DNA of 61,590 bases from Candidatus Micrarchaeota archaeon. GTDB lineage: Archaea; Micrarchaeota; Micrarchaeia; Anstonellales; Bilamarchaeaceae. How positions within the stretch are numbered: the stretch's first letter is position 1; the number at the start of each line of letters is the position of its first letter. Shown piece by piece: positions 1,786 through 50,283 of this stretch. The position numbers and the translations under genes are program-made. Under the pieces are notes generated by a model that was not told the DNA's origin, ran no database searches, and saw only the letters and a program-made list of their open reading frames with translations. The stretch spans positions 1 to 61,590 of the forward strand of contig JAUSHJ010000042.1 of the NCBI GenBank assembly GCA_030648615.1, in the 5' to 3' direction.

Positions 1786-1790
1786 TTAGG

Positions 1791-1925
1791 CCACCACAGC
1801 CTAAAGGCTGTGGTTTCATTAGGGCCGACGCGAATGTCGCAAAAGCGACATTGCGCCCATTGTCCAAAGGACAATTGGGAGGGCAAAGTTGTGTAAATTC
1901 GGCACTTCCCCCCAAGGTTAAAACC
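1791..1925. repeat. hairpin-cluster element (family B), copy at the gatD 5' junction
   Basis: Consecutive stem-loops: ccacagcc-taaa-ggctgtgg, aatgtcgc-aaaa-gcgacatt, and cccattgtcc-aaa-ggacaattggg (the CATTG/CAATTG asymmetric stem). Confidence 0.5.
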
Positions 1926-4794: not shown

Positions 4795-6089
4795 AGAGTA
4801 ATCTGCTTTCCTTTCCCAGAATCTTTTTTAGTCACTTTTTTAACAGTCTCTTCATTTATTATTTTAGTTTCTTCCTTCACTTCTTTAGATTCTTCCTTAG
4901 GTTTTCCGATCTTTAAATTCTCAACGCTCGTCCCCATTATAAATGCCATTTCGTCTTCTGTAAATTTATAGTGAAGCATTACGCGTTCAGTATCTTTAAC
5001 TCCGAATTCTTTTATTATAGGAATAAATATCCTTGCATCTCTTGAATTAGTATGTGTTACTTCTCCTATTTTTTTACCTATAGATTTGAGGATTGCCCTA
5101 GTAGACACAGTGCTAGCCATTTGGCGAAGGTAATTTGGAAATGAATATTTGGTAAATTTCCTGTAAACGCTTTTTTTTGATAATGCTACACCTGCACTTA
5201 CAAAATCCAGAGAGTATTTCAAATAACCCCAATGAGAATTTCTAATGCGACCTTCTAACTGATCTGCACGAGAAAGATAGTAGTATGCCATCGCCCTATC
5301 ATCTAAATTTTCATATTCTAATGGAATATTTTCGTCTACCCAAAGCTTTAGAATACTATAATCGACATCTCCAGAAACTGCCTTTTTAGCATCCTCATAT
5401 TTATCTGATTTGAATATGGATCTTATCCTTTCAAAAATATCTTTATCCCTATCACGCTGAGATGTAGACATACCTTGTAAATCATTAATAGAAGAACAGA
5501 CATCTCCGTTGCAGTTTTCTGCAATTGCATCAATCCTAGCATCATCAACTACGAGTTTTTCTTTCTCAGCAATTTTTTTAAGCAATAATTTTATAGAAGA
5601 CTTATTAACTTTTTTAAATTCTAAAAGCTCTGATTCTACTCTTATTGGAGCAATTTTCTTATCCCACGCATTAGTAGCTGTAAGTATTATTGGTTGATTC
5701 GAATCTCTTAATAATTTTGCTATTGCTGGAATTCCCCCTGAATCACTCCTCTGAAATGCATCTATGTCGTCTATGAGAAATATTTTCTTTCTTCCACTTA
5801 AAGAACCTGCCAATGTAGCAGCAGTCAATATTTTTTCAACTCTATCTTTATTTCTAAGTTCATTTGCTCCCATTTCAATTAGTTCTAAATCAAATTCTTC
5901 TTTTAAAGCATGAGCAGTGGAACTCTTTCCTGTACCTACTGCACCATAGAGCAATAGAGACTTTTTCCTTACACCGTTCATCCAGTTTAATGCCCACTGA
6001 CGTATTCGTGTAAGCTGTTCATCATTGCCAATTATTTCACTAAGTTTTTTAGGTGAATATTTTTGTGTAAATAACGTTCTATTTTCCAT
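4791..6089 (-). CDS. rfcL: replication factor C large subunit
   Basis: 'KYSPKKLSEIIGN', Walker A 'GAVGTGKSS', 'FLIDDID'. AAA+ clamp-loader architecture, 432 aa. Confidence 0.8.
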   Translation of the reverse strand: MENRTLFTQKYSPKKLSEIIGNDEQLTRIRQWALNWMNGVRKKSLLLYGAVGTGKSSTAHALKEEFDLELIEMGANELRNKDRVEKILTAATLAGSLSGRKKIFLIDDIDAFQRSDSGGIPAIAKLLRDSNQPIILTATNAWDKKIAPIRVESELLEFKKVNKSSIKLLLKKIAEKEKLVVDDARIDAIAENCNGDVCSSINDLQGMSTSQRDRDKDIFERIRSIFKSDKYEDAKKAVSGDVDYSILKLWVDENIPLEYENLDDRAMAYYYLSRADQLEGRIRNSHWGYLKYSLDFVSAGVALSKKSVYRKFTKYSFPNYLRQMASTVSTRAILKSIGKKIGEVTHTNSRDARIFIPIIKEFGVKDTERVMLHYKFTEDEMAFIMGTSVENLKIGKPKEESKEVKEETKIINEETVKKVTKKDSGKGKQITL

Positions 6090-12413: not shown

Positions 12414-12482
12414 CTGAAAACGTTTATTTCTTCTAATTTTATTTTTTTAATTAAGTAGTTTTTTTCTTCTTTTATTCTTTTT

Positions 12483-12592
12483 CTATTCTACTGTAAATTC
12501 TATCGATGTTAAAGATTTCTTCTTTAACAGTTGTAAATCATAAAGTAATTTGCTCGAATTTACAACAGGACAAATTCTTCGCAAATTTGTCC
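12483..12592 (+). repeat. MITE-like repeat, copy 1 (family A)
   Basis: Imperfect terminal inverted repeats ctgtaaattctatcga...tcgaatttacaacag. Central hairpin gttaaag-atttctt-ctttaac. Adjacent hairpin ggacaaatt-cttcgca-aatttgtcc. Near-identical copies at 30398 and 59688, and a short one at 22500. Confidence 0.6.
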
Positions 12593-15669: not shown

Positions 15670-15771
15670 GAGCCTATAGTCGAAACTATCTTTTATCCTA
15701 AAGATAGCGAAATTGGTTAAGACGTTGCTCTTACACAGCAAAGATTCGCAGTTCGATCCTGCGTGGGCTCA
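15670..15771 (+). tRNA. tRNA-Val(TAC) with a putative ~27-nt non-canonical intron in the D-loop region
   Basis: Acceptor gagccta/tgggctc (6 WC plus 1 GU). T-arm cgcag-TTCGATC-ctgcg. Anticodon stem ttgct/agcaa with loop cTTACac. The D-region is 37 nt and contains the perfect hairpin ctatctttt-atcc-taaagatag, so a ~27-nt intron is inferred rather than a tRNA with an impossible D-loop. Confidence 0.55.
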
Positions 15772-21293: not shown

Positions 21294-21473
21294 GCAGGGG
21301 TGGCGGAGCGGTCAAACGCGGCAGACTCAAGATCTCATAAGTTCCTTACTCGAATGTGAGAAAGGAAATCTGTTGGCCTAGCGCCTACACAGGTTCAAAG
21401 ACCACCTTTCTTTTTCCAAAAGAAAGCTAGTCGCACCAAAGAAAAAGGTGGTATGAAAATCCTGTCCCCTGCA
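21294..21473 (+). tRNA. tRNA-Leu(CAA), type II, with two putative introns (canonical 37/38 and one in the T-loop)
   Basis: Acceptor gcagggg/cccctgc (7 WC). Anticodon stem gcaga only pairs with tctgt about 36 nt downstream; loop ctCAAg gives anticodon CAA. T-stem acagg pairs with cctgt only after removing ~60 nt that follow 'ttcaaa'. Long variable arm. Confidence 0.55.
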
Positions 21474-22267: not shown

Positions 22268-22499
22268 ATAATACTATCTCAGAAGTACTATATAAATGTT
22301 ACTATTGATGATGTTTTATGCAGATTTACGGTTATTGCCCCGCCAATAGCCTAACCTCGTTCAGGCCAGCATTTATATAGAACGAGTGTTGGATTTACCT
22401 CGACAAAGAGGGCAAAAAACAAGGTTGCGTCCTCAGAGCTGGTCAGGGGGTTTGCCCCCTGCAAATTTTGTTTACAAAATTGCGGTGCTTTGTTTGTAA

Positions 22500-22553
22500 G
22501 GACAAATTGATAAGAAATTTGTCCTGTTGTAAATTCGATAGAATTTACTATAG
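22500..22553 (-). repeat. MITE-like repeat, short copy (TIRs joined, central part deleted)
   Basis: The reverse complement reads ctatagtaaattctatcgaatttacaacaggacaaatttcttatcaatttgtcc, i.e. the family-A termini without the core. Confidence 0.5.
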
Positions 22554-22670
22554 AAAAACAAATGCCACCTGCAATTTCTTTTTATCAATATAATCTAACA
22601 ATACCCCAGACTCACGACCGAAAACGTTCTAGTGACAACTATTTATTAATTTTCCCATCGTATAACCCTC

Positions 22671-23015: not shown

Positions 23016-23432
23016 ATGAAATCTATAACAGTAATTGCAGATGACAGAGTAGGTCTTTTAGCAGATATATCATACCTTCTTGGAAAAGCAAAAATAAACA
23101 TTGAATCGATTGGACTGGAAGTCGTTGCCGGCAAAGCAGTAATGTCTCTTACTTTGAAAGATCCTGAAAAAGCTAAGACTGTCCTAGAACATGCTGGATA
23201 TGAGGTCACTGAAACGAACATGATAGTAGTAAAACTAAATGACCAACCAGGAGAACTTGGAAAAATTACAAGTATGATGGCTCAGGAAAAAATAAATATT
23301 GAGAATATACATATGCTATCAAAAGATGGTAAAGCTACGATTATAGCTATTAAAGTGGATAAACCAAAAAGAGCATTAAAACTTCTAGAACCATACCTTG
23401 TAAATAGAGAAGAATTAACTGGTGTAAATTAA
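23016..23432 (+). CDS. tandem ACT-domain protein
   Basis: Two ~65-aa repeats with 'DRVGLLADIS' / 'DQPGELGKITS' ACT signatures. Confidence 0.65.
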   Translation: MKSITVIADDRVGLLADISYLLGKAKINIESIGLEVVAGKAVMSLTLKDPEKAKTVLEHAGYEVTETNMIVVKLNDQPGELGKITSMMAQEKINIENIHMLSKDGKATIIAIKVDKPKRALKLLEPYLVNREELTGVN

Positions 23433-24484
23433 TCCAACTCCAGTTCAATCTCTTTTTCTTTTTTATTTATTTTAGCATTAGGCAATTTATTCTCAAGATC
23501 ATTTATATTTGTTTTTTCAGCCATTGCTAGCAATGATTCTACTTTCTCGTAATTTGAATAAATAAAATCGCCTTTTGCCTTAAGTTCTTTTTCTTCCTCG
23601 TTCAGAGTAACCAAACGAGCTTCCTGCTCTTCTAACCTTTTTTGCAATTTATCCAGTTCAACATTACGCTCCTCTTTTGCATTTAGATAAAATAAATCTG
23701 CAACTTCGCTAAGTGTTTCAAATGACTTAGTTTCAAAATCAGAATATTTGGAGAATTTTATTAAACCATAGTCAACTATTTGGCTATCTTTGTAGAAACC
23801 TACTGGAGCAAGATGTTTTCTTATAATATCTAATTGAGAAGTTATAGACCCTAGTTCTGATTTTGTCACCGTATTACCAGGCTTCTTCTCTTCTATTTTA
23901 CAAATAGACAATATTTCCTTCGCGTATTCTTTTCCAAGTGGCATCTGAAGAAGTGCACTTATTATATATTTCTCAGATAATGCATCTTCTAGTTTTTCCT
24001 TAACGTTTGATTTTGGATAATTGTATTCAACACCACGTTTTATTTTTCTGTCTTTCCATTCCTCATCCTTAACTGCAAATAAGGTTTTTCCATCTCGCAC
24101 CAGTACAAGATTACCTTTGGCAAATCCTTCATAAACTAAAGTTCCTCCGTCAAACTCAAATGCAATTATCCTATCATTGTTTATCTGTTTTACTGATATT
24201 AGTTTACTGCCTTCTAATTCTTTTCTTAACCCTTGAACGAAACCGTCTCCTTCTTCACCTTCTTCCATGAATTTTGAGGCATTAATTCGCATGCCTAGAT
24301 CTATGGATAGAGAAATATCTCCAAGTTTTATTCTGTACCTGCCTTCGGCTATGAAGTATATCTTATTGAACCTTCTGCCTAGCAGATTATCAAGTTCTTT
24401 TAGTATGAACTGATATTCTATGTTTTCCATCGGTCTGCCCTGTGGGGCAGATCTGTCGACCCTTCGGTTCTCCATCGCACGCAT
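23429..24484 (-). CDS. NFACT-N domain protein (N-terminal half of a NEMF/RqcH/FbpA-type ribosome quality-control factor)
   Basis: 'FILKELDNLLGRRFNKIYFIAEGRYRIKL' with a coiled-coil C-terminus. The partner NFACT-R gene is at 36817-37599. Confidence 0.65.
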   Translation of the reverse strand: MRAMENRRVDRSAPQGRPMENIEYQFILKELDNLLGRRFNKIYFIAEGRYRIKLGDISLSIDLGMRINASKFMEEGEEGDGFVQGLRKELEGSKLISVKQINNDRIIAFEFDGGTLVYEGFAKGNLVLVRDGKTLFAVKDEEWKDRKIKRGVEYNYPKSNVKEKLEDALSEKYIISALLQMPLGKEYAKEILSICKIEEKKPGNTVTKSELGSITSQLDIIRKHLAPVGFYKDSQIVDYGLIKFSKYSDFETKSFETLSEVADLFYLNAKEERNVELDKLQKRLEEQEARLVTLNEEEKELKAKGDFIYSNYEKVESLLAMAEKTNINDLENKLPNAKINKKEKEIELELD

Positions 24485-27736: not shown

Positions 27737-27794
27737 GACAAGCTTGTCGCTCAGAGCGACAAGATGTCCATTGTTCGATATGTCGAACAATTGG
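27737..27794. repeat. hairpin element (family B), intergenic copy
   Basis: cttgtcgc-tcaga-gcgacaag, then ccattgttcga-tatg-tcgaacaattgg (asymmetric stem). About 85% identical over 40 nt to the copy inside argS. Confidence 0.55.
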
Positions 27795-27814
27795 AAGGTA
27801 GAGGCTAGAACGTT

Positions 27815-29559: not shown

Positions 29560-30150
29560 AACGAGTAATTAAAAGCTTCTGAATACTAAGCATATATGGG
29601 CTAGATTGGGGCCAGGGGTCCCAGCACCGTACATCCCCTTTAGACGGGTCGAAGACCCGGGGCGTTATATAATTCTAAGATGCCTTCTGTTTTAAGCGTC
29701 GATGCTCTGCCTCATATGGCAGTCTTTACGCATCAACCGAGCCAGATCGAAAGAAGCAACTCTAAATGCATAAAACTGTGCTTGTGAGATACAGAGTGGA
29801 GCTGATGGCAGAAGCTCCTTCTTAGTGTTACTATGGCCAACCGGGATGCCCATTTTGAAACAAAATGGGCTGAATTTACTAACAAGTAAATCGGATGCCC
29901 ACTCTACTTATGATAAACTAAGGTTCGTGGACCTTTGACGTGTATTCACGTCAAAATTTGTCACGATTTTTTTGCCCTCGTGACAACCCTTCCTAGTCTT
30001 CAGTTTCGCTTATAGACGGAATTCCAGTCAGTTTGCCCTAAAGGCAAATCCCTCGAGCATAGCTCTCGGTCACTCCGCTATCGCTACGTGACAGCCAACA
30101 CGTATCTGTTCTTTCTTGTAAATCGTCAACTGTCGAAAAAAACTACATAA
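29560..30150. other. ORF-free, hairpin-rich ~600-bp region; candidate structured ncRNA or degraded gene
   Basis: No ORF of 60 aa or more on either strand. GC-rich core at 29595-29660 (ggggccaggggtccc..., cgggtc-gaa-gacccg). Downstream hairpins ttgacgtg-tattc-acgtcaaa, tttgcc-ctaaa-ggcaaa, and the 29-bp IR element. Confidence 0.25.
29958..29987. repeat. 29-bp inverted-repeat element, copy 2 (inverted relative to copy 1)
   Basis: tttgtcacga-tttttttgccc-tcgtgacaa, the exact reverse complement of 24568-24598. Confidence 0.55.
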
Positions 30151-30382: not shown

Positions 30383-30397
30383 TTTTTTTAATTTTTT

Positions 30398-30490
30398 TTA
30401 TTCTACTATAAATTCTATCGATGTTAAAGAATTCTTCTTTAACAGTTGTAAATCGCAAATAGATTTACTCGAATTTACAACAGGACAAAA
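30398..30490 (+). repeat. MITE-like repeat, copy 3 (family A)
   Basis: About 90% identical to 12483-12592 over ~95 nt. Confidence 0.6.
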
Positions 30491-30499
30491 TTTCCCGAC

Positions 30500-30585
30500 A
30501 CGATTGTTGCTCGTGGCAACAATTGCGTGGGCACAATTATTTTCCGCAGAAAATAATGTGCATTGACGCGTTTTCGCGTCAATTG
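30500..30585. repeat. hairpin element (family B-like) appended to MITE copy 3
   Basis: cgattgttgc-tcgt-ggcaacaattgcg, gcacaattatttt-ccgcag-aaaataatgtgc, and cattgacgcg-tttt-cgcgtcaattg. All three show the CATTG/CAATTG one-nt asymmetry. Confidence 0.5.
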
Positions 30586-30645
30586 TATCTTTTTCCTAAT
30601 TGGAAAAAGTTTGTTATCATTTTGTCCTTTTATTATCTTTTTATA

Positions 30646-33625: not shown

Positions 33626-35188
33626 GTGAAATTACCTATTAATATTAAGAACACTAAACAAATGATTTTTTTACTTCTAATAGTATATACTATTACAAGA
33701 CTTTTTATTGTATCTTATGTACCGCTCGTTAAAGATGAAACGATCTATGCCATGATGATAGAAGAACAGGCAGAAAAACCAACGTTAATTACAACATTTT
33801 TAGGCTACGATGTAGGCTGGAAACCACCAGTGTTCTTTTGGATTTATGCTTCTTTTATTAAAATTCTAAAAGTGTTGCCACTACCTCTAGAGCATATTTA
33901 TAGACTACCAACAGTATTTTTTGGAGCTGTAAATGTAGTTCTAGTTTATTTTTTTATAAAAAAATTACATACACCAGAAATTGCTTTTTTGACTGCATTA
34001 ATTTATGAATGCTTATTTCTTACAATTTATACCGATAATTCAGTCTTGACAGATACACTAAACATGACATTTGTTTTTATTAGTCTTTTATTTTACATAA
34101 ACAAGAAACCTACGATGAAAAATTTTATCATCGGCGCAACATTTGCATTTCTAGCGTTCTATGTCAAATTTGCACTTGCATTTATAGTTCCCGTTTTAGT
34201 TATCAGTTATTACTTTTTTAATGATGAAAAATTTGATAAGAAAATTTTTCAGAATTGTAAATTATCAAATTTACAATATGATAAAAAAATATTAAAAAAT
34301 CCAATATTATGGTACTCTTTTATCGCCATACTTTTAGCTCCAGTTATATATTATTCTTTATTTTCTGATAAAAGTTTGACAGAGAACGTATACAATAAAG
34401 ACATTTTGGATAGATTTCTAAGCATACTAGAACCCATAAAAAATATCGACATCGCCAAAAGTTCTTTAATAGGTCTTTTTTTCCTTGTGAGTGTATTTTT
34501 GGTCATTGGAATTGCAGGATTGAAGAACAATTGGAAAAAATATTTATTCTTTGCTTCCTGGTTAAGCCTAATAGCATTTCCAATATTCTCAGGAAATTAT
34601 CTGCCTTGGCATTTCTTACCAATAGCATTGCCATTGGCATTTTTTTCTGCCATAGAATTAAGCTATTATAAAGAAAAATATTTATTCGATAGATTCAGCG
34701 CATTTATTTTAATTTTAATAATAATAGTTAATCTAGCTTTAGGAATGATGTTCTATGATGACCTAAAAAATGGGATTATGCCTGAAAAAAGTGCCGGAGA
34801 ATTCCTTGCGTTTAAACAGAACGTAGCAATAATTGGAGATTATCCCCCCACAATAATAGCATACAAAACACTGAAAGAAAAAAGAAAATTAGGACATATA
34901 CTTGATTATGGCTGGATATTAGGATCTGGACAACAGGATAATGAAAGCTATCAGAAATTAGGCCAAAAATATTTTGAAAATATTAACAATATTGAAAATG
35001 GATCTTTTGCCAAAATGTTTTACGTAGACAATAAAATATTTAGAAAGGATACTAACATCAGCAAATTCGATTACCTGGTGGCCATAGGCTGGAAAAGTAA
35101 AAATGGAAAACTTATTTGGAACAGTACGAACATAAATATTTATGATATTAGTTCAGGAATAAATAAATCAGTTGTATCTTCTCAATAA
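33626..35188 (+). CDS. GT-C fold glycosyltransferase (PMT_2/ArnT-like)
   Basis: More than 11 TM helices. 'LVKDETIYAMM' acidic motif in the first loop. Confidence 0.55.
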   Translation: MKLPINIKNTKQMIFLLLIVYTITRLFIVSYVPLVKDETIYAMMIEEQAEKPTLITTFLGYDVGWKPPVFFWIYASFIKILKVLPLPLEHIYRLPTVFFGAVNVVLVYFFIKKLHTPEIAFLTALIYECLFLTIYTDNSVLTDTLNMTFVFISLLFYINKKPTMKNFIIGATFAFLAFYVKFALAFIVPVLVISYYFFNDEKFDKKIFQNCKLSNLQYDKKILKNPILWYSFIAILLAPVIYYSLFSDKSLTENVYNKDILDRFLSILEPIKNIDIAKSSLIGLFFLVSVFLVIGIAGLKNNWKKYLFFASWLSLIAFPIFSGNYLPWHFLPIALPLAFFSAIELSYYKEKYLFDRFSAFILILIIIVNLALGMMFYDDLKNGIMPEKSAGEFLAFKQNVAIIGDYPPTIIAYKTLKEKRKLGHILDYGWILGSGQQDNESYQKLGQKYFENINNIENGSFAKMFYVDNKIFRKDTNISKFDYLVAIGWKSKNGKLIWNSTNINIYDISSGINKSVVSSQ

Positions 35189-35366: not shown

Positions 35367-35458
35367 AATATACCTTAGTTATCAAAATTGATAATTAAAG
35401 TAAAAACAAAGCTTAATATACCTTAGTTATCAAAATTGATAATTATGGTAAAAACAAA
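35367..35458 (+). promoter_or_regulatory. 44-nt tandem direct repeat (x2, period 48 nt) containing the ttatcaaaattgataa palindrome; candidate AbiEi operator
   Basis: Copy 1 is at 35367-35410 and copy 2 at 35415-35458, identical except 'taaag' versus 'tatgg'. Copy 2 overlaps the AbiEi start codon. Confidence 0.5.
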
Positions 35459-36056
35459 TAAGATTATGATTTTGAAAGAATTACAAAAATACCCAGTATT
35501 CACTGCCAAAACTATTAGAGATATTACAGGCAAAGAAAGGCAGTATGGCAATCTGATACTTCATAGATTAAAAAAAGCAGGTCTGATTTTTAAACTCGAG
35601 AGAGATAAATATACTGTACATGAAGATTCTTGGATAGTAGCTTCAAATATTCTATGGCCATCATATATATCTGGTTGGGCAGCCCTCCAGTATTATCATT
35701 TAACTGAACAACTCCCGTGGCGCATAGATATAATAACCACCGGGCAAAAGAAGAAAAGAGAAATAACTTTTGGAAATTCAAGAATACGTTTCATTAAAAC
35801 AAAACCAGAATATATGTTCGGATTTAGAAAAGAGCATTATCACGGTTTTGAGATATTCATAGCAGAAAAAGAAAAGTGTATTGCAGATAGTTTTGTTTTT
35901 AAGAAAGTTTCGGACGAAGAATTATTAGACATCGTATCCAAACATAAAGAAGAGTTAGACATAAGATTAATAACTAAATATATAAAAAAAATGGTTCGTC
36001 GTCCATGGGCGAAGAACGCCGAATATTTTTTAGAGAGGCTCAATACACATGCTTAG
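35436..36056 (+). CDS. AbiEi-like antitoxin / transcriptional regulator (type IV TA, abortive infection)
   Basis: N-terminal wHTH 'ILKELQKYPVFTAKTIRDITGKERQYGNLILHRLKKAGLI'. 8-nt overlap with the downstream DUF1814 gene. The true start is possibly M at 35445. Confidence 0.6.
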   Translation: MIIMVKTNKIMILKELQKYPVFTAKTIRDITGKERQYGNLILHRLKKAGLIFKLERDKYTVHEDSWIVASNILWPSYISGWAALQYYHLTEQLPWRIDIITTGQKKKREITFGNSRIRFIKTKPEYMFGFRKEHYHGFEIFIAEKEKCIADSFVFKKVSDEELLDIVSKHKEELDIRLITKYIKKMVRRPWAKNAEYFLERLNTHA

Positions 36057-36807
36057 CAGAAATGAATTGGAAACAATGATGCAACTGAAACGACTCAGTA
36101 TTGTCCAGACTGAAAAAGATTATCTTCAAAACATTCTCCTTTATACGATATATTCGGTTGCTGGTAGAGAACTGATTTTCAAAGGGGGCACATGCTTATA
36201 CAAGGTATATGGCCTGAATAGATTTAGCGAAGACCTTGATTTTTCCTTAACTAAATATTTTGACTTTGAAAAGTTAGTGAAAAAGATATTATTTATGACA
36301 GGACAAACTGGATTATATGGAAAGGTAAAAACATTTGAAAAATATCAGAATCAGTTTAATATAAATATGGAATTCAAAGGACCACTATATTCAGGAAATC
36401 CAAAAAGTCTATGCTTTATAGGTCTTGACATCAGTATGCGTGAAAAACCATTTTTATCACCGGAGAAGCAAACTTTGAATCAGTTCTACAAAGATATACC
36501 GGCATTTGATATATTTACAATGGATTTAAGAGAAATTCTTGTAGAAAAAATTGCGGCAACACATGACAGAAAAAAACCAAGAGATGTTTATGATATTTGG
36601 TTTCTTTTAAAATTTAAAAATGTCCAAATTGATTATGAGCTTCTGCAAAAAAAATTGAAAAAACGTAAAATATCTTTTGAAAAAGACACATTTCTTCATA
36701 AGATACAGGAAAAAGAACCGATGTGGAAAGGAGATTTGACACCATTGATTGCATCAGAATTACCCCCATTCGATCAGGTAAAAAAGGAGATTGAAGAAAG
36801 ATTATGA
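36049..36807 (+). CDS. AbiEii/AbiGii-family nucleotidyltransferase toxin (DUF1814)
   Basis: 'GGTCLYKVYGLNRFSEDLDFS' hallmark motif. Confidence 0.7.
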   Translation: MLSRNELETMMQLKRLSIVQTEKDYLQNILLYTIYSVAGRELIFKGGTCLYKVYGLNRFSEDLDFSLTKYFDFEKLVKKILFMTGQTGLYGKVKTFEKYQNQFNINMEFKGPLYSGNPKSLCFIGLDISMREKPFLSPEKQTLNQFYKDIPAFDIFTMDLREILVEKIAATHDRKKPRDVYDIWFLLKFKNVQIDYELLQKKLKKRKISFEKDTFLHKIQEKEPMWKGDLTPLIASELPPFDQVKKEIEERL

Positions 36808-36816
36808 GGTTAAATT

Positions 36817-37599
36817 ATGAACATTAAACTCAAAATAGGTAAAACCGTCCACGAGAACGCTGCACGTTACTACGAACAGGCAAAAGAAGCCAGGAAAAAG
36901 ATGGACGGGCTTAAGCAAGCAATAGAAGAAACAAAAAAGGAAATGATTAAATCAGAAAAGAAAGCTAAAGAAAATAAAAAACTAATAAAGACTAAAAAAG
37001 AAAAAAAATGGTTCGAAAAACTGCACTGGTTTTACACTTCAAAAGGAAAAATGGCTATAGGAGGAAGAAATGCACAGCAAAATGATCAGGTAGTTTCAAA
37101 ATACATGGAAGACAGAGACTTGTTTTTCCATGCTGATATCCAGGGAGCTACAGTGGTTATATTGAAGGATGGCATAGATGCAGAAGACAGTGAATTGTTA
37201 GAAACAGCACAGTTTGCAGCCAGCTTTAGCAATGCATGGAAAAACGGTAATGCATCTGTGGATGTCTATGCGGTAAAAAAGGATCAGCTTGCAAAACATA
37301 CAAGTGGCGGTTATATCCCAACAGGGGCTTTTGCCATAACTGGAGAAAGAAAATGGTTCAAGAAAATGAAGATGGCTCTAAGACTTGGTAGAAGCCCTAT
37401 GGTAGAGGGTGGAGGCATACTGATTGTACCTGAGAATTGTACTAAAAAGCTTGAAAATGAAGTTACACTTTTTCCTGCTGCTGCCGGAAAAGACAAGGGA
37501 GAGTTAACAAAAACTCTTGCGAAAAGATTTGCTGTACATCCTGATGAATTAATGGAAGTACTGCCTAATGGGAAAACTAAGATGGTGTACAAGGATTAA
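36817..37599 (+). CDS. NFACT-R (DUF814) domain protein, the C-terminal half of a NEMF/RqcH-type factor
   Basis: 'LHWFYTSKGKMAIGGRNAQQNDQVVSKYMEDRDLFFHADIQGATVVIL'. Confidence 0.65.
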   Translation: MNIKLKIGKTVHENAARYYEQAKEARKKMDGLKQAIEETKKEMIKSEKKAKENKKLIKTKKEKKWFEKLHWFYTSKGKMAIGGRNAQQNDQVVSKYMEDRDLFFHADIQGATVVILKDGIDAEDSELLETAQFAASFSNAWKNGNASVDVYAVKKDQLAKHTSGGYIPTGAFAITGERKWFKKMKMALRLGRSPMVEGGGILIVPENCTKKLENEVTLFPAAAGKDKGELTKTLAKRFAVHPDELMEVLPNGKTKMVYKD

Positions 37600-40890: not shown

Positions 40891-42747
40891 ATGCTAACCA
40901 AAATCAAACACCACATAGCTAAAATGCTGGCAGATGCTGCAGATATTAGTGAAGAGAAAACTTTTTCTAGCCTTGAATTACCTAAGAACGAGTTTGGAGA
41001 CCTGACTAGCAAGATTGCATTTGTGCTTGCAAGTGAGCAAAAAAAGAATCCGATGGAGATTGCTAACAGTATCGTTGTGAAACTTCCCAAAGACGAATAC
41101 GTTGCCAAGGTCGAAACTAAAGGTCCATACATAAACTTCTATTTATCTGATAAATTTTACTCTGAACAGGCAAACGAAATAGTAAAATTGAAGGATAAAT
41201 TTGGTATAGGTAAAAAAACAAATAAAAAAGTTATGATAGAATATTTCCATGCAAATACTCACAAGGGCGTGCATATAGGTCACATACGAAACATCTCAAT
41301 AGGAGAAGCATTGGCAAGAACGCTTGAATTTGCAGGTAACAAAGTGATAAGAGCTAATTTTCAAGGAGACATAGGCATGCATGTTGCCAAATGTCTCTGG
41401 GGTTTCATTAATATTTACCATGAAAAAGCTCCAGAAGAAAACCGCGGTGTTTGGTTAGGTAAAGTTTATTCTGAAGCTTCCGGAATGACAAAAGGAAACG
41501 AAGAACTAGAAACCCAGGTCAAAGATATTAACGTCAAGCTTTATACAGGAGATAAGAAACTTACAGCCCTATTGAAAAAAACAAGACAATGGTGTCTTGA
41601 TGATTTTAAAGAATTTTACAAAGAATTTGGAGTAACGTTTGATGAACTTTATTTCGAGAGTGAAACTGAAAAAATAGGGACAAAAATAGTTATGGAAGCA
41701 CTCAAGAAAGGAATAGCAAAGGAAGACCAAGGTGCGATAATAATGGACCTTAAAGATGATGGTCTCGGAGTATACGTACTAATTACTAAAGAAGGCTACC
41801 CGCTCTATTCAACCAAAGATATCGGTCTTGCAAAAATAAAGTTCGACAAATATAAACTTGACAGAAGCATTCATCTCGTTGGAAAAGAACAGGAATTCCA
41901 TTTCATGCAGCTCTTCAAGGCTTTCGAAAAATTAGGCATGGAAAAAGCTGCCAAAGTTTCCTACCACCTCATTTATGATTTAGTTATGCTTCCGGAAGGT
42001 AAAATGTCCTCACGGGAAGGAACGATGGTGCTTTACGAGGATTTGAAGACTAAACTAATGGAACTAACTCGCGTTGAAGTAAAGAAAAGACATGAAGACT
42101 GGGATGCGAAACAAGTAGAAGAAACCGCAAGAAAAATAGCTTTTGCTGCATTGAAGTTTTCCATGGTAAGGAAAGAGAATAACAGGATTATAGTATTTGA
42201 CTGGAATGAAGCATTAAATCTTGAAGGAGATTCTGGACCATACTTACAGTATGCATATGTACGTACTAACGGCATTCTTGAAGGTTATAAAACTTCAAGA
42301 GATGTGGCCAACAAGCTTGTTGTTCAGAGCAACAAGATGTCCACGCAATTGTCGAGCGCGACAATGCGCACATTGTTCGAAACATCGAACAATTGTGTTG
42401 TTGCATTGCAACAATCGGAAGGCCACACCGATATAGAGAAAGCTGGGAAAAAAGAAATAAACGTTAAAGGATATAGTTACACTAATGAAGAGAAAAAACT
42501 CGTTAAACTGCTTTCTGAATTCCCGGAGGTTATTGAGAGGACTGCCAGCCACCTCAGTACAAACACTTTGGCGCAGTATTTGTTAGAAGTAGCATCATTT
42601 TTCAATAAGTTTTATGCATCTTCCCCAGTGCTAAATGCTGAAAAAGAAGATGAAAGAAATGCTAGACTAGAAATAGTAAAGGCAACCAATACCGTATTGA
42701 AGAGTGGACTGAGTTTACTCGGAATAGAATGTCCAGAAAAAATGTAA
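40891..42747 (+). CDS. argS: arginyl-tRNA synthetase, carrying an in-frame hairpin-element insertion
   Basis: HIGH-like 'HANTHKGVHIGHIRN', 'GKMSSREG' (KMSKS), DALR-type C-terminus. 618 aa. Confidence 0.88.
   Translation: MLTKIKHHIAKMLADAADISEEKTFSSLELPKNEFGDLTSKIAFVLASEQKKNPMEIANSIVVKLPKDEYVAKVETKGPYINFYLSDKFYSEQANEIVKLKDKFGIGKKTNKKVMIEYFHANTHKGVHIGHIRNISIGEALARTLEFAGNKVIRANFQGDIGMHVAKCLWGFINIYHEKAPEENRGVWLGKVYSEASGMTKGNEELETQVKDINVKLYTGDKKLTALLKKTRQWCLDDFKEFYKEFGVTFDELYFESETEKIGTKIVMEALKKGIAKEDQGAIIMDLKDDGLGVYVLITKEGYPLYSTKDIGLAKIKFDKYKLDRSIHLVGKEQEFHFMQLFKAFEKLGMEKAAKVSYHLIYDLVMLPEGKMSSREGTMVLYEDLKTKLMELTRVEVKKRHEDWDAKQVEETARKIAFAALKFSMVRKENNRIIVFDWNEALNLEGDSGPYLQYAYVRTNGILEGYKTSRDVANKLVVQSNKMSTQLSSATMRTLFETSNNCVVALQQSEGHTDIEKAGKKEINVKGYSYTNEEKKLVKLLSEFPEVIERTASHLSTNTLAQYLLEVASFFNKFYASSPVLNAEKEDERNARLEIVKATNTVLKSGLSLLGIECPEKM
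42309..42416. repeat. hairpin element (family B) lying in-frame inside argS
   Basis: cttgttgttcagagcaacaag, cgcaattgtcg-agcg-cgacaatgcg, cacattgttcga-aaca-tcgaacaattgtg, and ttgttgcattgcaacaa. Possible TIR-like flanks gatgtggcc / ggccacacc. Confidence 0.5.
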
Positions 42748-45343: not shown

Positions 45344-45434
45344 TTTATAGAGAGAAGTTTATAAAGAGTGAATATTTAGGGTTAGACCTAAGGAAAGCAG
45401 GGTCTACTTAATTGCAGGAGTATATAACTATATT

Positions 45435-46214
45435 ATGAAGATTAAACTTTTATTCGCTGGATTGTTTGTGGGAATTTTATTGTTAGTTTCTGGATGTTTG
45501 CAGGAACTGCAGAGACCACCTAGCATGGAACCTCAGGGATTTGGATTACCACTGCCAAATAATGCCAGCGAAGTGCCTCAGAAAATCAAGGATATTTATC
45601 TTGAAACACTGAAAGATCACCCTAAAGCCGAACTTTCTGCCTGCATTGGCAAAGGTGAAACTTACGGTTTAGCATTGATATATTCGATTTCAGAGAGTTA
45701 TGGGTTCTCTGCCTGGTACGCATACTATACGATTAATGGTAATTTGATAACAAATGGATCATTTTCTGATGTTCAGACGTACACAGTAGATGGAAAACCA
45801 AGCTTTAGCTCAACAAAGATTCCTGAGACAGGGGAATGTAAAAATATAGATATGACAAATACTTCTGAAGTTCGAACAAATACTAACGATTTGCCTAAAA
45901 ATGTTTCAGATAAATTTGACAGTCTCAAAAATGAATATGGAACACGAGAAACCTTTCGTGGCATTATATTGAATAGTTGCAATAGGAACAACGAAACACT
46001 TTATGTAGTAGCTGCAAGCGATAAATTCTCTGGGGATTTTGTTTACTATGATAAAGATGGAAAACTAGTTTCTAGTGAGTATTATAGCGATATGGGATAT
46101 GGTAATGACAGTAGACCAAATAGGATATATTTAACGAATCATACTTGTACGACTATAAAGGAAGAATTAGGAACGTTTGGAAATCCGTTTACAGAACCAC
46201 CAGTAGCTAATTAG
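45435..46214 (+). CDS. lipoprotein, hypothetical (tandem paralogue 1)
   Basis: Signal peptide plus lipobox 'LLVSGC'. Shares 'ELSACIGKGET' and 'TNHTCTTIKEE' with the next gene. Confidence 0.5.
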   Translation: MKIKLLFAGLFVGILLLVSGCLQELQRPPSMEPQGFGLPLPNNASEVPQKIKDIYLETLKDHPKAELSACIGKGETYGLALIYSISESYGFSAWYAYYTINGNLITNGSFSDVQTYTVDGKPSFSSTKIPETGECKNIDMTNTSEVRTNTNDLPKNVSDKFDSLKNEYGTRETFRGIILNSCNRNNETLYVVAASDKFSGDFVYYDKDGKLVSSEYYSDMGYGNDSRPNRIYLTNHTCTTIKEELGTFGNPFTEPPVAN

Positions 46215-46272
46215 ATTAAGTTCCTTCTTCCCAGCTAGGTTTTACTATTCTAATTCTAATAAGGAAAACAAT

Positions 46273-46677
46273 ATGAACTTAATCATTGGAAGAGATAGTG
46301 ATACTATGAAAAACATTATTGTTATCTTGCTAATCGGATTTTCCCTGCTTATTGCAGGATGTGCACAAAAACAAGAAGTACCGAAAACGGTTTTAGATAA
46401 GTACGAAAATTTAGTAAATAGGTATAGCACTAAGTATTATCTAGGAACAGAACTTTCAGCGTGTACAAACGGCAATGAAACAAACAAGCAGATTTACTAT
46501 ATTCGAGCAGGCGAAAAATCCAATGGGGAAACACATTACTATGGTGAAGATGGATCATATGTAGGAAACTACACTTGGATAGATGAGATAACCCCGAATG
46601 ATCCGAAACCGCCGATTGACATAACAAACTATGATTGCAAATTAATCAAAAAATTAGATGCAATGATCGAGGGTTAG
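46273..46677 (+). CDS. lipoprotein, hypothetical (tandem paralogue 2)
   Basis: Lipobox 'LLIAGC'. 'ELSACTNGNET'. 'TNYDCKLIKK'. Confidence 0.5.
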   Translation: MNLIIGRDSDTMKNIIVILLIGFSLLIAGCAQKQEVPKTVLDKYENLVNRYSTKYYLGTELSACTNGNETNKQIYYIRAGEKSNGETHYYGEDGSYVGNYTWIDEITPNDPKPPIDITNYDCKLIKKLDAMIEG

Positions 46678-46683
46678 CTAAGT

Positions 46684-46775
46684 ATGTTTGTCTGCAAAAT
46701 CCTTGACGCAATTGTCATGCTTGACAATGCACCCATTGTTCGTTGCAACGAACAATTGGGAGTTGCCGCAACTTC
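46684..46775. repeat. hairpin element (family B) apparently inserted into the 3' flank of the lipoprotein paralogue, flanked by AAGT direct repeats
   Basis: gcaattgtca-tgct-tgacaatgc, cccattgttcgttg|caacgaacaattggg, and agttgc-cgcaact. AAGT at 46680-83 and 46776-79. The downstream 'cccttcttcccagct' matches the 3' flank of paralogue 1 at 46222-46236. Confidence 0.55.
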
Positions 46776-48024
46776 AAGTCCCTTCTTCCCAGCTTGCAAG
46801 ATACTTCTTCTGTGCTTCAGTTAATGTATCAATCTTTACAGACATTGAATTAAGTTGCAACAACGCAATATCATTATCTATTGATTCTGGTAAAGTAATT
46901 ACACTTGATTTTAATTTTCCTTTATTCTTCACCAGATATTCACAGGCCAAAGCTTGACCACAAAAAGAAGTTGACATTACTTCTGAAGGATGACCTTCTG
47001 CTGCACCAAGGTTAACTAGACGACCTTCGGCACACAAGTAAATACTCTTGTTACCTACCTTGTATTCTTCCAAAGAAGGACGCATCCTTCTCTTTTTATA
47101 AGCTTTATTTAGTGCTGCAACATCAATTTCATTATCAAAATGACCGGAATTAGCCAAAATTGCACTATCTTTCATTTCTTTTACATGATCTAGAGTAATA
47201 ACGTCTCTATCTCCAGTAACAGTAATGAAAATATCTCCAACTTTAGCAGCATCGTTCATCTGCATAACTCTGAATCCATCTAACACTGCTTGTAGTGCTC
47301 TGAAAGGATTTACTTCTGTAACGATTACGTTTGCACCCATGGCACTCGCACGCAGTGCAACCCCTTTGCCACAGTCACCATAACCAGCAACCACTACAGT
47401 CTTACCAGAAAACAGAACATTAGATGCTCTAATTATACCATCAAGAGTAGATTGACCAGTACCGTAATAATTATCTAGAAGATGTTTGGTGTTATTGTCG
47501 TTCACTGCAATTATCGGATATTTTAATGCGTTGTCCTTCACCATTGCATGTAAACGAATAATCCCAGTTGTAGTTTCTTCACAACCGCCAATTAGCTTTG
47601 GCAATAATTCCTTATGCTTCGTATGGATTAATGAGATGAGATCGCAGCCATCATCTATAGTAAGATCAGGCTTATGAGAAAGGACGAGTTCTAGAAATTT
47701 ATAGTAATCTTCTTTATTTTCTCCCTTATGACCGTAAACATTCACTCCTTCTTTCGCTAACGCAGCAGCAACATCATCTTGAGTAGAGAGTGGATTACAA
47801 CCAGAAATAGCAACTTTTGCGCCTCCTGCAATCAGTGTTCTAACTAGCACTGCAGTTTCTTTAGTGACGTGCAATGCCATACCAATCGTCAAACCTTTGA
47901 ATGGTTGTTCCTTCTTGAAACGTTCCTTTATCGAGAGTAATGCGGGCATCCTCTTCTCTGCCAATTCAATGTTAAGCATTCCTTGTTCTGCCAGTAAAAT
48001 ATCTTTTATCTGATAAGATGTCAT
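46774..48024 (-). CDS. ahcY: adenosylhomocysteinase
   Basis: NAD-binding 'VVVAGYGDCGKGVA', 'HFDNEID'. 416 aa. Confidence 0.9.
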   Translation of the reverse strand: MTSYQIKDILLAEQGMLNIELAEKRMPALLSIKERFKKEQPFKGLTIGMALHVTKETAVLVRTLIAGGAKVAISGCNPLSTQDDVAAALAKEGVNVYGHKGENKEDYYKFLELVLSHKPDLTIDDGCDLISLIHTKHKELLPKLIGGCEETTTGIIRLHAMVKDNALKYPIIAVNDNNTKHLLDNYYGTGQSTLDGIIRASNVLFSGKTVVVAGYGDCGKGVALRASAMGANVIVTEVNPFRALQAVLDGFRVMQMNDAAKVGDIFITVTGDRDVITLDHVKEMKDSAILANSGHFDNEIDVAALNKAYKKRRMRPSLEEYKVGNKSIYLCAEGRLVNLGAAEGHPSEVMSTSFCGQALACEYLVKNKGKLKSSVITLPESIDNDIALLQLNSMSVKIDTLTEAQKKYLASWEEGT

Positions 48025-48220: not shown

Positions 48221-49114
48221 ATGAGGAGAGTTGTAGATAAACAAACGGAGTTTACTCAAAGAGTATATGAGGTTGCAAAAGATCCATCACTGAGCAATAG
48301 ACAGGCAAAAAAACGACTTATTGAATTAGCAAGAGCTCATTTATCGCAACTTGAATCAGATGGTTTTTTATTTGATAATGGCTGGTCAAAAAAAGGAAGA
48401 GTCATTGGAAATGTAAAAATAAATCCGGGATTGGTAGGAGTTGTAATCGCAGCCGGGAAAATACAATCTCGTGCACGATTACCTGGAAGACATTTTGTTT
48501 TTCCACTATGGGAAATAAAAACTCTTAATACAACTATCCAAGGTTTTAATGATTCCTATGAATTGCCATGCAAATCCGGGCTATTAACAACTATTTCAAT
48601 AAAATTAAGATATTCGCTTTTACCTGAAAAGGCTCCGTGGATTTATGAAAGAACAATGGGAAATTATAGTGAATTACTTATTGAACCGATAATACTTCAG
48701 GTAGCCAGAGAGATTTTATCTCAAACCGAAGAAACAAAGGTTATAGGAGAGGCGATTCGCTCAAACATCGCACAGACGCTAATAATTGTGCTTGAAAAAA
48801 TTGGGTTCCGTATGAATCAAGTAGCTATCCAGACAAGATTACCAGAACCAGTAGAAAAAATAGTTTATGCTAACAGACAAGCAGAGGTAAAAAGAGCTAA
48901 AGCCCATGGAACCGCAGATGCTACTAGAATTAATGCAGGTGCTAATGCTTATGCTGCAGGTCTGATGAATTCGCCCGAAGTTATAACTCCAGAGTTATTG
49001 AGAAGAATATCTCTAGAACACCCTGGATCGTTAAATGCGATGGCAGCATCACGAATTGCTGATAAAGTAATAGACTTAGCTGGAATTTACTTGAAAAGAC
49101 AAGGTCGCATATGA
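48221..49114 (+). CDS. SPFH/band-7 (stomatin/prohibitin-like) protein
   Basis: 'PGRHFVFPLWEI', 'LPEPVEKIVYANRQAEVKRAKAHGTADATRINAGA'. Confidence 0.65.
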   Translation: MRRVVDKQTEFTQRVYEVAKDPSLSNRQAKKRLIELARAHLSQLESDGFLFDNGWSKKGRVIGNVKINPGLVGVVIAAGKIQSRARLPGRHFVFPLWEIKTLNTTIQGFNDSYELPCKSGLLTTISIKLRYSLLPEKAPWIYERTMGNYSELLIEPIILQVAREILSQTEETKVIGEAIRSNIAQTLIIVLEKIGFRMNQVAIQTRLPEPVEKIVYANRQAEVKRAKAHGTADATRINAGANAYAAGLMNSPEVITPELLRRISLEHPGSLNAMAASRIADKVIDLAGIYLKRQGRI

Positions 49115-50283
49115 GGTTTTTTATGACAACGTTAAGACAAAGAACACTAGGCGCGATAAAACAACGAAGAACTGGAGATGGCCTAGCTAAATTTATTATG
49201 AATGAAGCACGAAAGGAAAAAATGAAGACTTTTTTAACCTGGTTCGGTGCAGCAGCTATTTTAAGTACATCTTTAGTTTTTGCTTACCGCAAAGAGCTTG
49301 GTTTTGTAGCAGAACCTGAAAAAGCTGATGGTGGCACAACAGAAATCTCTGAAGTTGTAAAACCAAGTTTAGAACTAACGAAAGAAAATGTAATTTGGAG
49401 ATATGTTTTTCGTGATAGATTTGATACACCTGAAGCAATAGATATAAAGGAAAATGCAATTAGAATAATAATAGAGCTTCACGCACCTTATCCTAATGTA
49501 AGTTTGGCTATAGTTAAAGGAGAATTAGATAAGTATACTGGAACGTTTAAAAGAATGCCTTTCCCTGATAATGCTAAATTATTAGAACAAATACCTGGCG
49601 ACCCAGATGAATTTAAAATAGGTAATATAAAACCTGCTCAAGAAGTAATTTATCGCTATAAATGCAGTAAACCGCCTTGCGATGACTCTATACGAAACAT
49701 GAAAATACGTTGTGAATCTGGTATGCTAAGGGCAATTGAAGACAATAAAATAGTGTGGAGTTTTGATACGCATTTGTGTGAAGAGGTTGGAGGTATTATC
49801 GATATTTCTACTATTGGAATACGAACAACACGTGTTATGCAGTCTGGCTCAGATAGGATATACTACCAGCCCGGAGGAAACTTTCTAATATTAGTTAGTG
49901 GAGATAAAATAGAATTGAGATCTTTAGATGATGGTTCCGTATTCTGGAGTTATGATTACAGAAACAAGGATCACCCTGAAAATTACCCTGAAGATATAAT
50001 AAAACCATATGTACCACGTATTTATGGAAACAAGTTAGTATTAGGATTGCCAAGTGAAGAATATGACTTGGTTGTGCTCAACATCGTTAATGGAAAGAAA
50101 ATATTTACAGCTAACACTAGAAACCTAATTAGTCGTGATAGCCAGTATGCAGTTGGACCGAACAGAGATCTAGCGTATGTAGTCGGAATGGAAGGAGATA
50201 TAATTTATCTTGCATCGAGTAAAGAAATTGCAGCTTTCAGAATTCCCACCGCTAAACAACCAGATGCGAAACCAGATGAATAA
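49111..50283 (+). CDS. membrane-anchored beta-propeller-like protein (PQQ/WD-like repeats), co-transcribed with the SPFH gene
   Basis: N-terminal TM helix. Repeated 'IVWSFD' / 'VFWSYDY' blades. ATGA overlap with the upstream gene. Confidence 0.4.
   Translation: MRFFMTTLRQRTLGAIKQRRTGDGLAKFIMNEARKEKMKTFLTWFGAAAILSTSLVFAYRKELGFVAEPEKADGGTTEISEVVKPSLELTKENVIWRYVFRDRFDTPEAIDIKENAIRIIIELHAPYPNVSLAIVKGELDKYTGTFKRMPFPDNAKLLEQIPGDPDEFKIGNIKPAQEVIYRYKCSKPPCDDSIRNMKIRCESGMLRAIEDNKIVWSFDTHLCEEVGGIIDISTIGIRTTRVMQSGSDRIYYQPGGNFLILVSGDKIELRSLDDGSVFWSYDYRNKDHPENYPEDIIKPYVPRIYGNKLVLGLPSEEYDLVVLNIVNGKKIFTANTRNLISRDSQYAVGPNRDLAYVVGMEGDIIYLASSKEIAAFRIPTAKQPDAKPDE

Follow-up and report, generated by a model that had tools for sequence, protein, structure and literature searches.

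A hairpin element probably inserted at the overlapping stop codons of a lipoprotein gene and ahcY in a Micrarchaeota archaeon

We analyzed the junction between a lipoprotein gene and ahcY, the S-adenosylhomocysteine hydrolase gene, in the complete 61,590-bp contig JAUSHJ010000042.1 (hereafter the window) of a Candidatus Micrarchaeota archaeon metagenome-assembled genome (MAG), where a 92-nt hairpin element separates the 2 genes. The gene order at the junction is P1 (plus strand), P2 (plus), and ahcY (46774-48024, minus), then eIF2-beta, eIF1A, and RIO1 on the minus strand. The open reading frame (ORF) of P1 (45435-46214) encodes a signal peptide with a lipobox Cys followed by 2 copies of a domain, and the Pfam scan assigned P1 to no family; the ORF of P2 (46273-46677) likely has its true start at ATG 46309 (MKNIIV...). 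A first-pass annotation of this DNA had described P1 and P2 as tandem lipoprotein paralogs, and they are true but old paralogs, sharing 36% identity over 95 aa (E = 1e-13). P1 is 33% identical to a 348-aa homolog in L083, L-numbers being our labels for the compared genome and metagenome stretches.

P1 ends in TAG-ATTAAGT-TCCTTCTTCCCAGCT, and P2 ends in TAG-CTAAGT, followed by the 92 nt of the element (46684-46775, plus strand, with the boundaries of the first-pass annotation), AAGT (46776-46779), and CCCTTCTTCCCAGCT. All strings quoted in that annotation for the gene ends, the hairpin element, and the AAGT on both of its sides are present. In the RNA fold, the left arm of the element, ATGTTTGTCTGCAAAATCCTTGAC, pairs with the 3' end of P2. 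Further along the plus strand come a variable hairpin H2, GCAATTGTCA-tgct-TGACAATGC (46708-46730), with a bulged A in its 5' arm; a constant hairpin H3, CCATTGTTCGt-tgca-aCGAACAATTGG (46733-46759), with a bulged T in its 3' arm, which is the signature of the hairpin family described below; and a small accessory hairpin, AGTTG-ccg-CAACT (46761-46773), directly adjoining the ahcY stop codon. The putative copies of the duplicated target are TAGCTAAGT on the left (46675-46683, plus strand), whose last 4 bases are AAGT, and ACTTCAAGT on the right (46771-46779, plus strand), which holds the ahcY stop TCA (46774-46776) and the Thr codon AGT (46777-46779). ACTT in the right copy can pair with the left AAGT. 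Rfam 15 had no match at E <= 1 for 46600-46860, and a scan for bacterial-type promoters and terminators found nothing at the element and no oligo-T terminator signature.

Because a word-indexed protein search with P2 returned only P2 itself, the empty site was reached through AhcY homologs, from which the contigs of relatives were found; an exact-protein look-up with AhcY returned only L001, a second assembly of the same sequence. The closest relative (L079/L080) shares with the window 94% amino acid identity in AhcY and 85% DNA identity in ahcY, with 65% at third codon positions. Read in the sense of P2, L080 has ...GGATCCGCTGGTTACTTAAGTTCCCTCTTCCCAGCTTGC, and the hairpin element is absent. 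Its P2 ortholog ends in ...CKLIKKLDPLVT-stop, and this stop TAA overlaps the ahcY stop TAA within an 8-bp perfect palindrome, ACTTAAGT (context ...GGTTACTTAAGTTCCCTCTTCCCAGC). The window is ~96 nt longer at the junction, with a further 7-nt indel among the C-terminal codons of P2. The left junction, which follows GGTTAGCTAAGT, matches L080 at 10/12 positions, and the right junction lies between AACTTcAAGT and CCC. A single AAGT in the empty site stands against 2 in the filled one, exactly at the junctions (chance 1/256 for fixed boundaries), which supports the target duplication that the first-pass annotation had considered possible. If divergence is allowed for, up to 9 nt (TACTTAAGT) are duplicated, with 7/9 on the left and 8/9 plus 1 inserted base on the right. 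The element is likewise absent from L083, a further relative, in which the 3' end of the 348-aa P1/P2 homolog overlaps ahcY by 23 nt. With the element absent from L080, L079, and L083, parsimony places the insertion in the lineage of the window. We take the comparison of these sequences to show that the element inserted after the split from the closest sequenced relative, into ACTTAAGT, where the stops of P2 and ahcY overlapped, and that at least 4 bp of the target (up to 9 allowing divergence) now stand on both of its sides.

The first-pass annotation had also pointed to a 3' flank shared by the 2 paralogs, and pairwise alignment of 46216-46236 with 46774-46794 recovered it as 19 nt with 1 mismatch or 21 nt with 2. 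An exact 14-mer of this flank occurs within the window at these 2 sites only; as the window has 57 maximal direct-repeat pairs that reach 14 nt or more, one would fall at these 2 regions by chance with a probability of ~2e-4. The homology ends at AGCT on the right side; weak coding similarity aside, the P1 and P2 regions share no other significant similarity in DNA. The minus-strand reading of the flank is AGC TGG GAA GAA GGG ACT TGA, which encodes SWEEGT-stop and makes up the final 7 codons of ahcY. In solved structures of the archaeal type, AhcY chains terminate precisely at W-x-x-G-T, so that SWEEGT-stop is the native end of ahcY and the right-hand AAGT consists of its Thr codon and the first base of its stop codon. 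The counterpart after P1, starting 1 nt past the P1 stop (46216-46236, minus strand), is a relic of the same codons, AGC TGG GAA GAA GGA ACT TAA (SWEEGT-stop; 19/21 against 46774-46794). It is identical at 20/21 positions to the ahcY end of L080, the true empty junction, and to judge by this match it keeps the ancestral unfilled junction sequence. The claim that the P1 side shows the empty site holds to that extent; the relic is a copy of the site and not an allele of it.

Together, the relic and the ahcY end bracket a 537-nt segment (46237-46773) containing P2 and the element. Being 19-20/21 identical although P1 and P2 share only 36%, the relic is either much younger than the paralogs or under constraint, and a simple tandem duplication of the lipoprotein gene with its flank was rejected as its origin, since this identity is too high for neutral sequence as old as the paralogs. 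A 10-bp inverted repeat, GATTAAGTTC (46214-46223) and GAACTTAATC (46275-46284), found as a minus-strand blastn match, brackets the P1-P2 spacer and overlaps the 21-nt relic. The word CCTTCTTCCCAGCT was considered as the mark of a repeat family and dropped, other near-matches having 2 mismatches and lying in unrelated contexts. In the more distant L081, L082 (Ca. Bilamarchaeum dharawalense), and L084, compared with window 45344-46773, ahcY is directly followed by eIF2-beta, so the lipoprotein genes are themselves an insertion in the sub-clade, comprising P1, P2, and the 348-aa L083 homolog, in opposite orientation. At 48221-50283, the window has 2 genes more than L079, where a topoisomerase gene adjoins ahcY: one for a Band_7 protein and one for a 390-aa protein whose function was not assigned.

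It is very improbable that the element is ancestral at the junction and was precisely deleted in the relatives. Such an account could draw on the proneness of hairpin clusters to deletion, on a clean empty site coming from only 1 lineage, and on a copy (b) in L075 that resembles a partly deleted version of the window copy at 1.8 kb (described below). However, L080 and L083 both lack the element and in both the lipoprotein gene and ahcY overlap, so that deletion would need to have re-created these overlaps exactly, including the 8-bp palindrome of 2 stop codons, and the P1 relic keeps the unfilled junction as well.

A second junction in the same clade, between eIF2-beta and eIF1A, presents a series with no, 1, and 2 hairpin insertions, each flanked by ATAAGGTGA. 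L083 is empty there and reads GCAATAAGGTGATATGTTG, with ATAAGGTGA present once (L083 5785-5787). In L082 (4696-4736), 2 copies of ATAAGGTGA, an exact 9/9 duplication, enclose 31 nt that contain the hairpin AAAAATGT-tcgc-ACATTTTT. L081 (4732-4888) has 3 copies of the 9-mer around 2 inserts, in the order ATAAGGTAA, 42 nt, ATAAGGTGA, 95 nt with 3 hairpins, and ACAAGGTGA, the copies agreeing at 8-9/9 positions. As at P2/ahcY, the insertions landed on overlapping signals, here the stop codon and ribosome-binding site in ATAAGGTGA, and its duplication preserved these for both genes. Set against the empty L083, these loci show that hairpin insertions in the clade do come with 9-nt duplications, and the 3 mapped events (46.7 kb, L081, and L082) are all compatible with 9 nt.

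The element belongs to a hairpin family, family B in the first-pass annotation, whose core is a perfect hairpin with a stem that varies between copies, compensated in every case, followed by the constant hairpin CCATTGTTCG-N4-8-CGAACAATTGG. The family was confirmed with a covariance model trained on 27738-27800, 42340-42402, and 46703-46765, which found 4 window copies, all on the plus strand and sense to the neighboring gene, including 1 outside the training set (1828-1884, E = 7.5e-8). Strand asymmetry amounted to 55 vs 24 bits. A genome scan with the pattern CATTGTTCG-N4-8-CGAACAATTG gave 51 stretches, 12 of them in Micrarchaeota records and the rest about what chance would give (~20 by our own estimate), and a tighter pattern gave 25 stretches in metagenomes and no exact H3 match in viral contigs. 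A perfect 7-11 bp hairpin stands 3-5 nt before H3 in 28/28 nonredundant copies, with 25 distinct arm sequences, and only 0.6% of shuffles reach even a 7-bp hairpin. The eleventh pair of H3 covaries (A-T in 11 copies, T-A in 8, G-C in 8, broken in 1), and accessory hairpins and closing stems vary between copies, whose host loci range from 36% to 60% GC.

The core recurs at non-orthologous places, as in the 46.7 kb and 42.3 kb window copies compared with L010. Spacer copies stand at gene 3' ends at 27.7 kb, at 46.7 kb, and in L010, there between convergent genes. The 27.7 kb copy (27738-27800, plus strand; H1 and H3) lies in a 94-nt spacer after a CDC48-like gene, and its flanks, AATGCTAGA ... 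GAGGCTAGA, form a 7/9 repeat judged from the filled site alone. A composite copy at 1776-1957 (plus strand), ATGATTTGCCC ... GACACATGAA, lies upstream of and overlaps the gatD start (ATG 1927) and recurs twice in L075 at other loci; an orthologous relationship was rejected, as the neighboring genes differ. In L067, a hairpin copy supplies the gcvH stop codon. An exact 12-mer, ACTTCAAGAGAT, common to L010 and the copy in ArgRS (below) is the only notable word at the termini; a 10-bp outer inverted repeat, TCTTGAAGTA/TACTTCAAGA, is found in L010 only and was discarded as a family terminus because, with 1 mismatch, it is too common to be diagnostic. Separately, 7 homologous metagenome loci (L053, L057, L058, L062, L064, L071, and L074) share a ~200-nt conserved non-coding region with H3, in which only the H3 loop differs among the loci; it has no ORF and no Rfam match and may be a structured RNA gene of no known family.

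Copies were also found in frame inside proteins. A block of 4 hairpins, H1-H2-H3-H4 (42310-42417, plus strand), occupies 108 nt in frame within ArgRS (40891-42747), closed by GTGGCC/GGCCAC and preceded by a further hairpin (42276-42300); Rfam 15 returned only a chance miRNA match for 42230-42470 (17.9 vs 95 bits). The 36 aa that it encodes are missing from 35/35 aligned homologs, and the block is missing from the DNA of the closest relative (L078). A pair of ~27-nt tandem units brackets the block. At the corresponding site, L078 (4270-4330, ~window 42285-42430) shows direct repeat units of 21 nt in tandem (18/21), mini-hairpins that jointly encode GAGRSATVA GAGHSVTVN; this repeat could be a footprint or a precursor. 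Likewise, a pair of hairpins of a sister family, family A, at 34222-34290 adds 57 nt (19 aa, DEKFDKKIFQNCKLSNLQY) in frame to the ORF 33626-35188, which encodes a 520-aa membrane glycosyltransferase-like protein; this insert is missing from 27 homologs. As both blocks are exact multiples of 3 and open, translation in frame is the simpler reading of the 2, splicing being the other. The non-orthologous copies, the in-frame ArgRS block, and the L081/L082 insertions with their 9-nt duplications support the proposal that family B is mobile.

The AT-rich family A follows the same plan: the window and L010 have the same constant hairpin, ATTGTAAATT-atca-AATTTACAAT, and an adjacent hairpin shows compensated changes. 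The 61-nt unit of 34222-34290 recurs at L010 4756-4816 with 82% identity. Two family-A composites, 12478-12574 and 30393-30489, are 91% identical over 97 nt at unrelated loci, making them the most recent-looking duplication in the window; both start at AAGTAGTTTTTTT, immediately past a stop codon, with 4 further hairpins (30503-30609) coming after the 30.4 kb copy. At 22300-22600, comparison with L022 and L034 revealed a conserved promoter-like stretch on the minus strand, TATATAAA then GCTGGCCTGAACGAGGTTAGGC, preceded by hairpin clusters in all 3, of family A in the window and of H3 type in L022 and L034; between L034 and L022, 1 of the promoter-upstream hairpins is replaced. An AbiEi/AbiEii toxin-antitoxin pair (35436-36807) has, just upstream, a 48-nt tandem duplication (35367-35458) with 95% identity.

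The distribution of copies allows us to weigh whether the hairpin cluster is instead a structure selected by the host (a 3' stabilizer, terminator, insulator, or protein-binding site in RNA or DNA), its copies being alike through function and not through mobility. The strong compensatory variation, an H3 conserved exactly in genomes from 36% to 60% GC, the usual position at gene 3' ends and upstream of promoters, the sense orientation of 4/4 window copies, and the different hairpins at a seemingly identical promoter-upstream position (window ~22.3-22.6 kb and L022/L034) would all suit such a role. A terminator or stabilizer would nevertheless make no sense in the reading frame of ArgRS, in the glycosyltransferase (family A), in tRNA D-loops, or in 16S rRNA, where copies also occur; the closest relative does without the element at the P2/ahcY junction; and the copies have neither an oligo-T terminator signature nor an Rfam family. 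We therefore regard host selection as the source of the likeness as decidedly unlikely, and the evidence against it leaves room for a function gained after insertion.

Introns provided a further setting for H3. Bulge-helix-bulge motifs were searched as 3-4-3 motifs with 4/4 pairs required in the central helix. H3-bearing introns lie in the D-loops of tRNA-Arg(CCT) in L024 and tRNA-Arg(TCT) in L056, and an H3-bearing 139-nt intron lies in the 16S rRNA of L070; in silico excision restores canonical D-loops (AGCUUGGAUA / AGCUUGGACA) and a 16S helix of consensus length. As positive controls, L024, L056, and 2 L070 introns passed the search. In the window and key loci, ARAGORN found no tRNAs until introns were removed by hand. 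The tRNA-Val(TAC) gene (15670-15771), recovered in this way, has a 28-nt hairpin intron in the D-loop whose splice motif, checked by hand, has only 3/4 pairs in the central helix. A class II tRNA gene (21294-21473) has 2 introns, one within the anticodon loop (~36 nt) and the other within the T-loop (59 nt), and ARAGORN finds it only once the T-loop intron is removed; it reads as Leu-CAA if the intron is a canonical 37/38 intron, the ARAGORN alternative being Ser-CGA. The tRNA-Arg gene of L024 has 3 introns. T-loop introns in tRNA genes of L024 (~4980-5125) and L046 (~5174-5310) start with GGCTTTTTGAC, as does a 42-nt L070 intron in the universally conserved GGATTAGATACCC loop (the 790 loop of 16S rRNA); these may form a second intron-borne repeat family.

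Micrarchaeota are known to be rich in non-canonical tRNA introns, and their epsilon2 endonuclease has a broad specificity that extends to relaxed motifs (PMC3239211). On this ground, with intron-split tRNAs in the window and the H3 clusters of L024, L056, and L070 lying within bulge-helix-bulge introns with canonical exon joins, the window copies might themselves be intron-like and cut from RNA by this enzyme. We give this reading very little credence. The strict 3-4-3 search found neither the ArgRS block nor the 46.7 kb copy to be enclosed by a motif (the 3/4-pair form was not searched there), and the only whole-block candidate at ArgRS would shift the reading frame, whereas the blocks of exactly 108 nt in ArgRS and 57 nt in family A, both open in frame, fit translation; the intergenic copy, moreover, has no need of splicing.

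On this evidence, we consider it probable that 46684-46775 is a copy of a non-coding, structure-defined family of insertion elements, widespread in Micrarchaeota, that inserted at the stops of P2 and ahcY. The comparisons demonstrate insertion at the overlapping stops, a target duplication of at least 4 nt, dispersal of the two-hairpin core, and persistence at permissive sites. The duplication would have left both P2 and ahcY with a stop codon, allowing the insertion to survive. As the element encodes nothing, it was presumably moved in trans by an enzyme encoded elsewhere or else copied in. Such an enzyme could make staggered cuts, to which the 9 bp compatible with the 3 mapped events would correspond; the alternative step would be copying-in by replication template switching. 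Copies would persist only where a stable hairpin cluster does no harm, namely in 3' spacers, gene junctions, protein surface loops, and spliced tRNA and rRNA introns. Both convergent transcripts would now end in the 3 stem-loops as 3' untranslated sequence, and a benefit at this site, such as 3'-end protection or insulation, is speculation.

A related explanation accepts the insertion as real but takes AAGT as microhomology or structure, the element having been copied in by template switching or break repair with duplications of varying length. The apparent duplications do differ, with 4-9 nt here, 9 nt in L081 and L082, and none at ArgRS and the 1.8 kb copy, and AAGT and ACTT could form a 4-bp closing stem. 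Template switching is favored by the longer direct repeats at hairpin sites (21 nt around P2 and the element, ~27-nt units at ArgRS, and the 21-nt tandem in L078), by element arms complementary to native neighbors (TCTTGAAG/CTTCAAGA at ArgRS, the P2 3' end, and the 10-bp inverted repeat 46214/46275), and by the lack of inverted termini, to which the failure to find a transposase can be added. Yet local fold-back cannot account for one H2-H3 core recurring in different genomes and at loci that are unrelated, for which an ectopic template is needed, and the 3 mapped events are all compatible with 9 nt. We judge this explanation unlikely, though worth keeping in view; template switching would in any case be a mechanism for the same mobile family and not a different entity.

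Several observations weigh against, or limit, the reading as a mobile insertion element. Terminal inverted repeats are absent at the mapped insert ends (46684/46770 at 46.7 kb, L081, and L082), and the Pfam scan found no transposase, integrase, HUH, or reverse-transcriptase domain in the ~50 window ORFs, nor any match to Y1_Tnp (RAYT type) among those scanned. The window copies of family B are only 66-81% alike over 53 nt, in stems only, with no sign of a recent burst, and the exact preservation of a 21-nt hairpin in genomes that span 36-60% GC suggests a motif recognized by the host more than it does decaying selfish DNA. There is no duplication at the similarity boundaries of the ArgRS and 1.8 kb/L075 copies, and a flank test of 34 clusters, of low power given their fuzzy boundaries, gave no surplus of direct repeats, the longest repeat averaging 3.41 against 3.22 +/- 0.14. 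Short direct repeats around other copies, which the first-pass annotation had proposed to look for, amount in the window to the 7/9 match at 27.7 kb. The apparent repeats at 2 copies hold palindromes (CTAG and GGCC) and could be mere closing stems; the corresponding reading of AAGT as only a closing-stem remnant without target duplication, drawn from the negative flank test, was overturned by the orthologous empty site. The P1 relic, as a copy, does not serve as an allelic empty site, and the empty site is known from 1 metagenome project. Finally, the filled and empty genomes share only 65% identity at ahcY third codon positions, by which measure the event is not a very recent one; of the recent transposition first suggested, the insertion stands by the empty sites of L080 and L083, and the recency does not.

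Among other features of the window, its sole Rfam match is a signal recognition particle (SRP) RNA at 29596-29853, for which the best-scoring model is the bacterial large SRP (75.9 bits) and not an archaeal one; 2 further hairpins (29848-29955) follow it. The NFACT (Rqc2-like) gene is apparently split into 2 pieces 12 kb apart on opposite strands (23429-24484, minus; 36817-37599, plus), one with the N-terminal and middle domains and the other with the NFACT_N end and the RNA-binding domain.

DPANN archaea have tiny genomes and are usually described as poor in mobile DNA. Despite that view, the window holds at least 4 family-B copies and several sister-family copies in 61.6 kb, at gene junctions, inside 2 proteins, and beside start and stop codons. 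The filled and empty sites at P2/ahcY offer a concrete case of an element landing on overlapping stops with both genes surviving, and through the constant hairpin, intron content and protein insertions are tied to small repeats within 1 lineage. In practical terms, genes escape standard tRNA finders, some protein segments derive from repeats, and the repeats may cause breaks in assemblies. A bolder idea, to which we attach a rather low likelihood, is that the two-hairpin module is a phylum-wide mobile unit recognized by a conserved Micrarchaeota enzyme and, by spreading into transcribed genes, seeds or enlarges the bulge-helix-bulge introns that are unusually numerous in the tRNA and rRNA genes of this phylum. 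If so, it would be an archaeal counterpart of eukaryotic "introner" elements that remodels gene ends (the ahcY/P2 stops, the gatD start, and the gcvH stop) and adds peptide segments to proteins. The mobilizing activity, if found, would be a new small-element system in archaea.

Our literature search found no description of this hairpin family and no report of elements of this kind from DPANN archaea, and we compared the family with the known classes of small repeats. MITEs, or miniature inverted-repeat transposable elements, are non-coding, multicopy sequences of ~50-200 nt, mostly intergenic and frequently located in 3' untranslated regions, that insert with a short duplication of the target and fold into stable hairpins (PMC10969869). 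The element resembles them in being small, non-coding, multicopy, and mostly intergenic, with stable hairpins and target duplications at the mapped sites (at least 4 and up to 9 nt at 46.7 kb, 9/9 in L082, and 8-9/9 in L081); the 27.7 kb copy shows 7/9 from the filled site only, and the ArgRS and 1.8 kb/L075 copies show none. It departs from MITEs in that its mapped ends carry no terminal inverted repeats, neither a transposase nor a related insertion sequence was seen in the window, and near-identical copies are lacking among the 4 of family B, each of which combines the modules differently. Repetitive extragenic palindromic (REP) sequences and their assemblies (BIME, REPIN) are bacterial, extragenic, and species specific, moved by RAYT (Y1, HUH) transposases, with a conserved 5' tetranucleotide and no target duplication; REPs are imperfect palindromes of 20-40 nt with a bulged base, clustered variably, mostly at gene 3' ends, and show compensatory change. 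Family B shares with them short imperfect palindromes with an extrahelical base (the bulged T of H3 and bulged A of H2) and differs in its duplications at mapped sites, its copies in ORFs and introns, and 1 hairpin identical across the phylum. Since inverted termini are absent, the copies are only 66-81% alike, and some lie in genes, the family is neither a MITE nor a REP/REPIN.

Cyanobacterial small dispersed repeats are very short nesting hairpin units within otherwise conserved sequences, and they differ from the present family in domain of life and in sequence. The copies that form intron interiors in tRNA-Arg D-loops and 16S rRNA of other Micrarchaeota recall archaeal bulge-helix-bulge introns, for which transposition between tRNA genes has been proposed. 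In the window copies, by contrast, which are either read in frame or placed in a spacer, the motif is missing; the module is cargo of introns and not the motif that defines them. Rickettsia palindromic elements (RPE) are palindromic repeats of 100-150 nt in a reduced genome, found in frame in unrelated housekeeping genes, where they are tolerated as additional peptide stretches, and also in non-coding regions (PMC10969869), and the ArgRS (36 aa) and glycosyltransferase (19 aa) blocks, absent from homologs, are like them in this respect. RPE, however, are bacterial and encode a conserved peptide, whereas here only the nucleic acid hairpins are conserved, and RPE have not been described within bulge-helix-bulge introns, where this hairpin family is found. 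The family behaves like MITEs, REPs, and RPE yet belongs to none of them, its separation from RPE resting on how these have been described.

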